Notes under the pieces: generated by a model | What the model was told of the DNA's origin: nothing | Databases searched by the model: none | The model's input: the letters and a program-made list of their open reading frames with translations, nothing else | Position numbers and translations under genes: made by a program | Source: Candidatus Bathyarchaeia archaeon | GTDB lineage: Archaea; Thermoproteota; Bathyarchaeia; TCS64 | NCBI GenBank assembly: GCA_050014495.1 | Contig: JBEKDF010000017.1 | Span: 1 to 59,705, forward strand | DNA: 59,705 nt | Direction of reading: 5' to 3' | In this document: positions 56,652 to 59,705 of the stretch, piece after piece | Layout of the letters: each line of letters starts with the position of its first letter | Position numbering within the stretch: position 1 is the stretch's first letter

Positions 56652-57437
56652 TTATTGTAAATCATTATAAACTGGATGGTATATTCCAATCTTACTCTCT
56701 TTTTTGATTTCGGAGATATCCCATTTTTTGTTAAGTTGAACCATAGGGAAATCCAAACATGAACAGGAGAATCCAAGACCCGTTATTACTGAGGGTAATC
56801 GGAGTTCACAATATCCAAATGGTAGTTCTATTTTACTTATTTTTTCAAGGACTTTTTTAGATATTATGAATCCCGGAAAAAAACCTTTAAATAAAGTTGG
56901 GTTTAATTTTTTTCTCTTTAACCAGTTTTTTACTGAATTTTTCCCTGTAAAAGGAAGCCTTACCCAACTCCATTGTGATTCATTATGTATTTTTTCATAG
57001 CGATTAAATGCCGCATCAAATTTCGTATATTTTCCATATACATCATTAATTAATCCTTTAATGTATAAATCATACTTATTAAAGATAAGAAAATCAAAAT
57101 TTAAACATTTACCTCGATTTACGTACCAATTTAATATTGAAATATCTTGGTTAAGATATCCTAAAGGCGTACAATCTACATATAAATTCATATCATTCTC
57201 TTTTAGTAATTTATTTAATTCACCTATTTCTACTCTTCTTAATCTACTTTCCATAATTGAGTTAATTTTGGAATTTATATTATAAATTGTTTTATCTCTA
57301 TAAAACATAAAATCTATAAGACGTTCAGTACCATATTTTGAAAACGTTGGTGGAAAAAAAGATCTACCACCAATTCCATATACAGGAGCTATTATTATAT
57401 TTGGATTCATTTCCATTAATTTATGAATTCTTTTCAA
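56652..57437 (-). CDS. AT-rich hypothetical protein, possibly glycan-related
   Basis: 261-aa ORF ending in IYHPV, bounded by (CG)n tracts at 56580-56587 and 57458-57466. Confidence 0.6.
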   Translation of the reverse strand: MKRIHKLMEMNPNIIIAPVYGIGGRSFFPPTFSKYGTERLIDFMFYRDKTIYNINSKINSIMESRLRRVEIGELNKLLKENDMNLYVDCTPLGYLNQDISILNWYVNRGKCLNFDFLIFNKYDLYIKGLINDVYGKYTKFDAAFNRYEKIHNESQWSWVRLPFTGKNSVKNWLKRKKLNPTLFKGFFPGFIISKKVLEKISKIELPFGYCELRLPSVITGLGFSCSCLDFPMVQLNKKWDISEIKKESKIGIYHPVYNDLQ

Positions 57438-57513
57438 ATAAACTAAATTAGGGCGATCGCGCGCGCTCCTATGATAAACGCCTCAGGAGCCCCGGCGTCC
57501 GGGCAGCACCCCA

Positions 57514-58590
57514 CTAGTTCCGCAGACCATCAAACGCTTTCTTACTCATACTCTTAAGTTTTCTCTCAACCAACCCCCTGTTCTCACCCCTATACGGCTC
57601 ACCCCTCACCAACATGAAGTACATGATCCGGGCCATCTCGTGAGCCACAGCCACAATAGCGCACCCGGAGCCCCTACGCCTCGACACCCGCTCATACATG
57701 CCCCCGAGCCTAGAATCATGCCTGACAGCCGTCTGAGCAGACTCCACCAACGCCCACCGGAGCCTCTTATTACCGGGACCCGAGATACCACCCATCCGGG
57801 TCCTCTCACCCGACTGGTGCACTGAAGGCACCAGACCCATCCACGAGGCGAACTCCTTGTCGCCTCGGAACCGGCCGACGTCACCGACCTCCGATACGAC
57901 GAGCATCGCGGTGAAGTAGCCGACGCCCGTCATTGTCATCAACAGCCGCACACTCCGGTCCTCCGCCGCGAGGACCGCGATCTTCTCCTCGATGAGCGTG
58001 ACCTGGCTGTCGACTGCCTCCAGGACCACGAGGTCGCTTCGCAGTATGGCGTCATCCATGAACCCGAAGTTCTGCTCCCGGAGCCAGGCGATGTTCTCCT
58101 TACTGAAGGGCGTCGTTCCCGGCATGCGGAGGCCGTGCTTGTCGAGGAGTCCGTGGATACGGTTCTTAACCTCGGTCCTGTTCTTCACCAGGTTCAGGCG
58201 GTGGCGGAGGAGCTCTCGGCGGCTTCTCAACTCCTCTCCTGGCACGTAGCAGGTCGGTATCATGTCGGCTCGGAGCAGTCCTGCGAGGGTTCTGGCGTCG
58301 ACCTTATCCGTCTTCACCTTCGCCTCCGCGATGAGGCGGGTCTTTGATGGATTTGAGAGAGCCACGTCGACTCCACGTTCCTCGAGCCTGTCATGGATCG
58401 GGATCCAGAGGTTCCCCGTCGACTCGACGACGGCTCTGACCTCGTCGTGGAGGGTGGTGAGCTTACCGGAGAACTCTTCTATCTCTTCAGGGTCATTCGC
58501 GAATCGGATCTCATCCAATAGTGTTCCATCCTCGTCTAGGACGGCGGCTTGACACATCTTTTTATGGACGTCTATTCCCACGTACTTCAC
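57514..58590 (-). CDS. IS110-family DEDD transposase/recombinase (GTG start probably at 58590)
   Basis: GIDVHK, VVES, KTDKVDA, MTGVG, GLVPSVHQSG, AVAHEMAR; GAGGTGA site upstream. Confidence 0.95.
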   Translation of the reverse strand: MKYVGIDVHKKMCQAAVLDEDGTLLDEIRFANDPEEIEEFSGKLTTLHDEVRAVVESTGNLWIPIHDRLEERGVDVALSNPSKTRLIAEAKVKTDKVDARTLAGLLRADMIPTCYVPGEELRSRRELLRHRLNLVKNRTEVKNRIHGLLDKHGLRMPGTTPFSKENIAWLREQNFGFMDDAILRSDLVVLEAVDSQVTLIEEKIAVLAAEDRSVRLLMTMTGVGYFTAMLVVSEVGDVGRFRGDKEFASWMGLVPSVHQSGERTRMGGISGPGNKRLRWALVESAQTAVRHDSRLGGMYERVSRRRGSGCAIVAVAHEMARIMYFMLVRGEPYRGENRGLVERKLKSMSKKAFDGLRN

Positions 58591-58745
58591 GGGTGTCACC
58601 TCGGGTGGCCTGCGGGCGGCACGCTCCTATCGGGTCTCCCCTACGGACCAGTCGGGTAGCCGCTCGGGTCTGGCCCAATCTGCCTTAAGGGTCTCGCTTG
58701 GACCAAGCGCGCGGCGGGCCTAGGCCACCCGCGACACCCTCATGG
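58591..58745 (-). ncRNA. Putative IS110 bridge/seek RNA in the upstream non-coding end
   Basis: Closing stems 58602-58611/58722-58731 and 58591-58597/58733-58739; internal segments match the element ends and the (CG)n target. Confidence 0.6.
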
Positions 58746-58775
58746 TCTCTCCTGAAAACGTTTCTCATACCGTCT

Positions 58776-59705
58776 GGCTTGTCCCTAAATTCCAGATCAG
58801 TTAGAATAACCTTATCTTGACAGTTGGGGTCTCGTCCCCCAACGGTCTGTCCCACCACAGGAGGTGAGTTCACTTAGGACAGGACGAACACGAGACCCTT
58901 GAAACACTCTTCAAAAACGTCGACTTAAGCATTGCCCAACAGCAAATCATCGGCTGCTACCACACAACCGGACCAGGAAGACATCCGAGAAACCCACTCG
59001 GCATCCTCAGAGCCCTCCTCATCATGAGGTTGAAAGGCATCCGCAGCCTACGGGAGCTCACAAGGATCCTCGACATAGACCTCCGCCTCAGAAGGCTCTG
59101 CCTGATAAAGAGGAATGAGAGAGGCTACACCAGATCAGTCATCAGCCGCTTCACCAAGAGAGTCGGAGCAGAGACGCTTCAACTCATCATCGAGGAGAAG
59201 GTCATCTGGCTCCTACGGAGGAGCAAAGTGGAGGATGTGGATGTGCTTTTGGACGCCAGCTTCATCAAGGCCCGAAGCATCAGACACCCCGACAACGGCA
59301 GACGAGGCTTCTCCGACGCGGACGCCATGGTTGGGAGGAACGGGCGCTTCTACGGCCTCGGATACAAGCTCCACGTTGCCGTGGACCACCGCAGCGTTCT
59401 GCCTCTCGCCACCCTGCTGGCTCCAGCTAATGACAACGAGAAGAAGCATGGGCCAGCGCTGATTGAGAGGACTCGGGTGGTTTTGGGGAGGGCTGGTGCT
59501 AGGCTGAGGAGCCTTGTGGCGGACAGCCAGTATAGCAGTAGGAGGGTGAGGGGTCTCGTCGAGGACTCGGTGATCCCTTACACGTCTAATCAGTCGGCTG
59601 GTGGGGACGCGCTGCGGGTTGACAGGAGGTTCAGGACACATGGCCCCGCTGGGCTGGTGGTTGAGTATCATAAGCGGCCGTTGGTGGAGTCGGTTTTCAG
59701 CTTCC
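58776..59705 (+). mobile_element. IS4/IS5-superfamily insertion sequence, left part (runs off the window)
   Basis: Candidate end GGCTTGTCCCTAAATT at 58776, followed by a DDE transposase frame. Confidence 0.65.
58874..59705 (+). CDS. DDE transposase (IS4/IS5-like), partial; no canonical start codon after the ribosome-binding site
   Basis: Hand translation: GPGRHPRNPLGILRALL...SLREL...LLDASF...SDADA...GYKLH...VADSQY...YHKRPLVESVF. Confidence 0.85.

Follow-up and report, generated by a model that had tools for sequence, protein, structure and literature searches.

Near one end of the window, by which we mean the whole stretch of 59,705 nucleotides analysed here, lies an intact IS110-family element with an upstream non-coding end of about 176 bp and a downstream one of about 52 bp (Table 1). 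Its open reading frame carries the domains PF01548 and PF02371 and scores 268.6 bits with NF033542, the model for IS110 transposases (cut-off, 140), which bears out the identity proposed in a preliminary description of this DNA. The protein is distantly similar to those of IS621 and ISCro4 (phmmer E value of about 1e-15), and the IS1111-type motif GL-P----SG is found in it. The motifs of the preliminary description are all where it had placed them, namely CGCGCGCGC at 57458-57466, GCGCGCG at 58707-58713 and GTCTCGCT, CGCTCCTAT and GTCTC at the positions given in Table 1. It had put the element inside a CG tract. It does not lie inside one. Only the downstream end touches a tract, and on the upstream side a DDE insertion sequence (DDE IS) follows directly, beginning with its terminal repeat. 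That neighbor had been overlooked, as had the right target guide of the predicted RNA.

A 261-amino-acid frame on the minus strand (56652-57482), whose Pfam match is below threshold, runs open through the tract into the end of the element. The neighboring gene thus looks truncated at its 5' side at the insertion site.

Table 1. Positions of the element, its predicted RNA and the two halves of its insertion site in the window
Feature	Position	Strand	Remarks
Left half of target (CG tract)	57458..57465	+	57460-57465 is the part read by the predicted left guide; relatives' flanks
CT core, downstream copy	57466..57467	+	Empty targets in the host genome; natural junction in L105
Short downstream end	57468..57513	-	Right donor CCTAT, 57468-57472; sub-terminal inverted repeat from 57470
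IS110-family DEDD recombinase, 361 aa	57514..58599	-	D10, E59, D98, D101 and S263 present
Predicted bridge/seek RNA body	58603..58730	-	Closed by an outer stem, 58722-58730 with 58603-58611
Predicted right donor guide + core (58624-58630) and handshake CG (58622-58623)	58622..58630	-	Equals CGCTCCTAT
Predicted donor-loop hairpin	58633..58649	-	Contains GTCTC (58634-58638)
Predicted left donor guide, RNA CCGACU	58650..58655	-	5/6 match to donor 58770-58775
Predicted right target guide + core (58680-58686) and handshake (58678-58679)	58678..58686	-	RNA AAGGCAG, predicts GCCTT
Predicted target-loop hairpin, GGUC / variable loop / GAGACC	58690..58704	-	Contains GTCTCGCT (58691-58698)
Predicted left target guide + core, RNA CGCGCGCU	58706..58713	-	Identical to 57460-57467; covariation
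Upstream element end	58759..58775	-	Sub-terminal inverted repeat; left donor 58767-58773; CT core 58774-58775
Adjoining DDE IS (IS5/IS1182-like)	58775..59705	+	Cut by the contig edge; right half of the target formed by its first bases

Element ends, core and adjoining insertion sequence

The same DDE IS is complete in a related locus (L031), where it measures 1280 bp and has its far end flanked by GCGCGCGC. Its transposase scores 85.8 bits with NF033551 and 63.5 bits with NF033581, against cut-offs of 270 and 140. The family, with members of about 1.27 kb and miniatures of 0.4 to 0.47 kb, stays below all NCBIfam cut-offs and is found in the genome that holds the window (host genome; C5, C34, C43, C61 and C79). 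Its free ends read GC tract, CT and then G[GC]CYYGTCCC. All five complete elements or miniatures in the host genome have GC runs on both sides, with direct repeats of 4 to 8 bp, and the CG tract beside the IS110 element is probably the target-site duplication of the adjoining DDE IS. A second DDE repeat type (TGTTTAG) likewise sits in GC tracts with direct repeats.

IS110 loci (134 in all, one of the contributing searches giving the best 80 of 223) were gathered for comparison. In the preliminary description the two ends had been joined through a CGC core, giving the junction gtct-cgc-tcct. This form was found at none of the 134 loci listed and is also absent from the host genome, whereas an end-to-end junction with a CT core occurs naturally in one of the listed relatives (L105). 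The core is therefore CT. In L105, two copies may lie in tandem, or reads from a circle and from the integrated element may have been assembled together; the accessible part of one report gives tandem repeats as by-products of another IS110 (10.1101/2025.10.25.684509). Whichever its origin, the sequence of the junction is fixed. Removal of the IS110 element in silico through the CT core restores exactly the seam of a free DDE end, and the host genome contains 40 such exact tract-CT-repeat seams, i.e., empty targets. A short core common to target and donor junction and the absence of terminal inverted repeats are both IS110 features, and this element has them. In 50 of 53 complete elements, at least 11 of 16 positions agree between the sub-terminal inverted repeats. 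The host genome contains two full copies and three or four fragments, and all five of its downstream IS110 ends lie on GC runs.

Predicted bridge RNA and its guides

We aligned 70 distinct left ends and parsed 69 of them, using a guide layout modelled on the accessible text of PMC11208160 and handshakes modelled on that of PMC11208158. Their architecture is an outer stem with two copies of one unit. The unit reads guide and CT, a GGUC hairpin with a variable loop, GAGACC, guide and AG, and two handshake bases. GAGACC is present twice in 61 of the 69. The alignment and the covariation of the guides make it likely that a bridge RNA is encoded in the upstream non-coding end, with the donor and target loops that had been proposed for it. 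L004, which was left out, has lost the stretch between the two GAGAC arms by deletion, so that its left target guide and its right donor guide now stand fused in a single loop.

The structural model, which was drawn from these same sequences, pairs 98.5% of cells over 48 left ends compared with 28 to 53% in slid controls, and compensatory changes on both sides affect only 3 of its 27 pairs. RNAalifold recovered the outer stem and the donor arm, and it paired the target arm differently from the model. There was no Rfam match within the window. An RNA from the plus strand was considered and set aside, as its fold is weaker (z of -2.17 compared with -3.00) and one-sided stem changes form G-U pairs on the minus strand. 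Likewise, positions 58634-58638 had been a candidate GNRA tetraloop and CCGU at 58643-58646 a candidate left donor guide; the alignment shows a variable loop there.

The RNA had been thought to encode the junction of the element's own ends. This is right for CGCTCCTAT, which comprises the predicted right donor guide, the core and the handshake and is kept in 56 of the 69 left ends. GTCTCGCT is instead a hairpin arm with part of its loop, and it is kept in only 9 of the 69 because its CGCT part is the variable hairpin loop. GTCTC corresponds to the conserved GAGAC arm. In the window element, the right donor guide matches its donor at 7 of 7 positions; the left one, imperfect here, matches at 6 of 6 in two relatives (L024 and L044). 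Covariation on the donor side is weak, as donor ends barely vary. Agreement with the donor was seen for the target-loop handshake in 57 of 67 cases. For the donor loop, the handshake is identical to the final two bases of the target in 46 of 55, and it becomes TA in the four members of the L061 group, which represents one event.

On the target side, guides and flanks vary together. Left guides match their left flanks at a mean of 5.25 of 6 positions compared with 4.61 after shuffling (52 distinct pairs), and right guides match their right flanks at 3.18 of 4 compared with 1.86 (51 pairs), or at 3.02 compared with 2.11 within the CG-guided elements only (43 pairs). None of 20000 shuffles reached any of the observed values, which overstates significance, as the homologs are related and come from metagenome assemblies. 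The right guide agrees in 57 of 65 cases with the base at position +1, tracking repeats that start with G or with A. Its match is only 1 or 2 of 4 in 11 of the 51 pairs, and in the window element it fits the flank GGCTT at 4 of 5 positions.

Ten elements have a left guide that is not CG. Their own left flank is matched at 5 or 6 of 6 positions in seven of the nine that have one, and the right flank at 4 of 4 in all eight that have one. The exceptions, L081 and L107, have CG-like flanks matched at 2 of 6; the flank that the guide of L081 does fit is that of L008, suggestive of a chimera or of mobilisation in trans. A quick tree of 53 of the 69 elements (the other 16 are without a 300-amino-acid frame) separates the lineages of the L061 group, L078 and L091/L126 and nests the L061 group within CG-guided elements; in L122 it is the right guide that has changed. 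As judged from this tree, retargeting occurred independently at least three times, with GCGCGCG, the predicted left guide, changing along with the flank. These events are stronger evidence for guide function than the shuffle statistics, and they uphold the earlier proposal that GCGCGCG is a target guide. A point against this is that the minimum-energy fold of the single sequence pairs the segment; RNAalifold leaves it unpaired.

Some of the new targets can be named. L061, L065, L069 and L071 form a sister clade whose new target is a conserved segment at the 5' side of the coding region in a large family of tandem genes, for which nhmmer gave 107 matches on 40 contigs, often about 600 bp apart (C74, C84, C50, C24 and others in the host genome). 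L078 is retargeted to a CT inside the TGTTTAG-type DDE repeat and not at the edge of that repeat.

Probable target site and its relation to the CG tracts

The 134 loci listed gave 78 distinct downstream flanks, of which 77 are long enough to score against CGCGCG. Sixty-two match at 5 or 6 of 6 positions, six at 4 and nine at 3 or fewer. Seven of these nine belong to elements with retargeted guides, L008 is without a left end in hand and L127 is degenerate. The tract does not continue in any of the 59 upstream flanks of CG-guided elements. A strict DDE terminal-repeat motif, set after the data had been seen, starts 44 of these 59 flanks (15 fail it) compared with 51 of 418 genomic GCGCG-CT sites. 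A looser pattern takes in 55 of the 59, and we use the strict figure because this pattern was fitted after the fact. A motif-free test, based on a DDE open reading frame or on a far inverted repeat with a GC run, is passed by 26 of the 43 upstream flanks of at least 500 nt (27 of 59 in all) compared with 28 of the 418 sites. The expectation that other copies would be flanked by CG tracts is thus borne out downstream and fails upstream. By the refuting conditions that the preliminary description had itself set, both these upstream flanks and the differing junction count against its model. As none of the upstream flanks continues the tract and 44 start with the DDE repeat, the target appears to be the seam between a tract and a transposon end.

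Forty-one genomic sites lie within one mismatch of the right guide of the window element and 32 of them are DDE ends, so that the guide by itself would account for the preference for such ends. The seam pattern occurs in all nine genomes with a close IS110 match (at least 70%) and in 8 of 52 others, kin among them not being independent.

Two arrangements of DDE elements are of note. At L039 (94-596), both termini of one miniature DDE element carry the upstream end of an IS110 element in a head-to-head arrangement, which speaks for the seam as target. L037 and L041 share the same miniature element and far flank and differ in their IS110 alleles and downstream flanks, a pattern of flank exchange or assembly chimera.

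Given the ends, the CT core, the empty targets, the junction of a relative and the covariation of guide and flank on both halves, all of which were observed, we consider it highly probable that the predicted bridge RNA steers the recombinase of this intact element to CGCGCG-CT-G[GC]CTT, the seam of a DDE IS and a CG tract. The tract would come first. A DDE IS would then insert and duplicate part of it, and the IS110 element would next insert at the C|T boundary with duplication of CT. The DDE terminal repeat would thereby remain whole, the IS110 element staying outside it at an already disrupted site, and the clade would have been retargeted several times to other sequences. By analogy with IS621 and ISEc11, insertion may involve excision as a circle, RNA-guided synapsis of the circle junction with the target and handshake-assisted exchange. 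That the IS110 element came first and the DDE IS then inserted at its end, an order that their almost constant adjacency might suggest, is scarcely credible, given the GC runs and direct repeats on both sides of free DDE elements (5/5), and with no GC run lying between the IS110 end and the DDE end. The matching GC run at the far DDE end, present in 17 of 59 cases and seen in L031 for the window element, argues for the order tract, DDE IS, IS110. It is also improbable that the RNA reads mainly the CG half and CT, the link with the DDE IS reflecting abundance, or recruitment by an end-bound DDE transposase with later adaptation of the right guide. DDE ends are indeed the commonest repeated class among GCGCG-CT sites; nevertheless, they make up about 12% of those sites and about 75% of the insertions. 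Right-guide matches are imperfect in many copies, yet this guide tracks the +1 base and matches at 4 of 4 positions at the retargeted non-DDE sites.

The preliminary description had the element target plain (CG)n through a CGC core and recombine tract with tract, making the genome-wide pattern. It was correct that CG tracts exceed chance, as GCGCGCGC occurs in the host genome at 16.9 times its third-order Markov expectation. Together with the CG run that the left guide does encode, this 17-fold enrichment speaks for plain tracts as targets; yet with CT as the core, bases for the right guide are needed too, and among the 32 tracts of the window none of the 14 tract-CT contexts fits that guide above 2 of 5. 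Upstream flanks are never CG (0/59) and the donor loop is without a CG guide. The few full and fragmentary copies in the host genome also contrast with its more than 1000 tracts of 6 bp or longer. A further point for tract-to-tract exchange comes from truncated copies, in which 10 of the 44 internal ends of alignments adjoin (CG)3; three of these ten, however, are DDE seams, and some internal ends reflect divergence and not breaks. As the intact element of the window has no internal (CG)3 apart from the guide, a tract seems to have been joined at such breaks to DNA without one, with IS110 as the victim.

The tracts of relatives point the same way. GCGCGCGC-type tracts reach 512 per genome in G002 to G033 and are patchy within the genus (1 in G001 and G010). 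Five tract-rich genomes were searched for PF01548. There was no match in G021 (250 GCGCGCGC; one contig, 92% complete), G015 (177), G008 (140) or G032 (106), and one match in G013 (351). The seam pattern, searched with one repeat type, was not found in G021, G015 or G008. Tract-to-tract catalysis is unsupported, since tracts are abundant in relatives in which no IS110 was found, and we regard plain-tract targeting with such rearrangement as very improbable. The IS110 literature passages searched, which come from partial texts, have no mention of target-target or donor-donor recombination, and exchange between two seams may occur. A search on GCGCGC repeats in archaea gave nothing relevant among the matches listed. 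The IS110 element appears to use the tracts and to be broken at them, and not to be needed for them, which removes it as the explanation of the CG tracts of this genome. The fallback of the preliminary description, the use of pre-existing sites, comes closer, except that the site is the seam of tract and DDE end and not the tract alone.

If the predicted RNA does read this seam, the clade might be a dedicated parasite of transposition events. Its address would exist only once a CG tract had received a DDE IS, the right guide would track the diverging repeats of several DDE lineages, and the element would act as an RNA-programmed regulator of archaeal transposon load. We find this rather doubtful. 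Were it true, replacing the GC flank could lock DDE transposons in place, and pairing of distant transposon ends could rearrange the chromosome.

Comparison with known systems

On all features that can be judged from sequence, the element is a member of the IS110 family. Its position within the family seems mixed. Sub-terminal repeats in the range of 7 to 17 bp, the top-strand-first order (the first predicted guide complements the transposase-sense strand) and GL-P----SG are those of the IS1111 group, except for the long non-coding region, which that group has downstream. The upstream position of this region is that of the IS110 group, in which sub-terminal repeats are absent or of 2 to 3 bp and the order is bottom strand first. 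This combination of IS1111-type features with an upstream RNA bears on how the two groups split.

The accessible text on IS621 and ISCro4 (PMC11208160 and PMC11208158; PDB 8wt6 and 9t56) describes a similar system, with a DEDD and serine recombinase, a CT core, a long upstream end with the target loop before the donor loop, left guides with the sequence of one strand and right guides complementary to it, handshake dinucleotides and ATA/TAT flanking the donor. Unlike those, the element described here is archaeal, its CT-core strand is opposite to the transposase strand, its sub-terminal repeat is long (about 11 to 16 bp) and its predicted loops are near-tandem copies of a GGUC-GAGACC unit. Its target is a transposon/host seam, compared with REP for IS621 and ISCro4. 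With the IS1111 seekRNA elements ISEc11, ISKpn4 and ISPa11, as described in the accessible text of PMC11187229, it shares sub-terminal inverted repeats with asymmetric extensions, a top-strand match before the bottom-strand match, GL-P----SG and natural reprogramming. It differs in the upstream location of its non-coding region, which the same text lists as an exception in a few cases of that group, and in its protein of 361 amino acids compared with 330 to 350.

A literature search that covered few subscription papers gave, among the matches listed, general bridge and seek papers only and nothing on this clade. Mapped here, from about 70 left ends, is a naturally reprogrammed archaeal system with a predicted bridge RNA, including core, four guides, handshakes, junction, empty targets and several switches. 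Like this element, IS4321/IS5075 and ISEc21 aim at other mobile elements. IS4321 and IS5075, said to have been described by Partridge and Hall in 2003, are reportedly IS110-family elements aimed at the terminal repeats of Tn21, and IS4321 is said to land inside the repeat. ISEc21 is an IS110-family element aimed at the transposase codons of the IS3 family, according to the accessible text of PMC11187229. Compared with IS4321 and ISEc21, the predicted address here is a chimera, of which one half is host tract and the other the end of a transposon, and insertion occurs at the outer edge of the repeat, which remains whole. New here are this chimeric address, a right guide that follows several repeat types and the series of retargeting events. 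An address that spans host DNA and the end of another transposon would amount to layered dependence of one mobile element on another.
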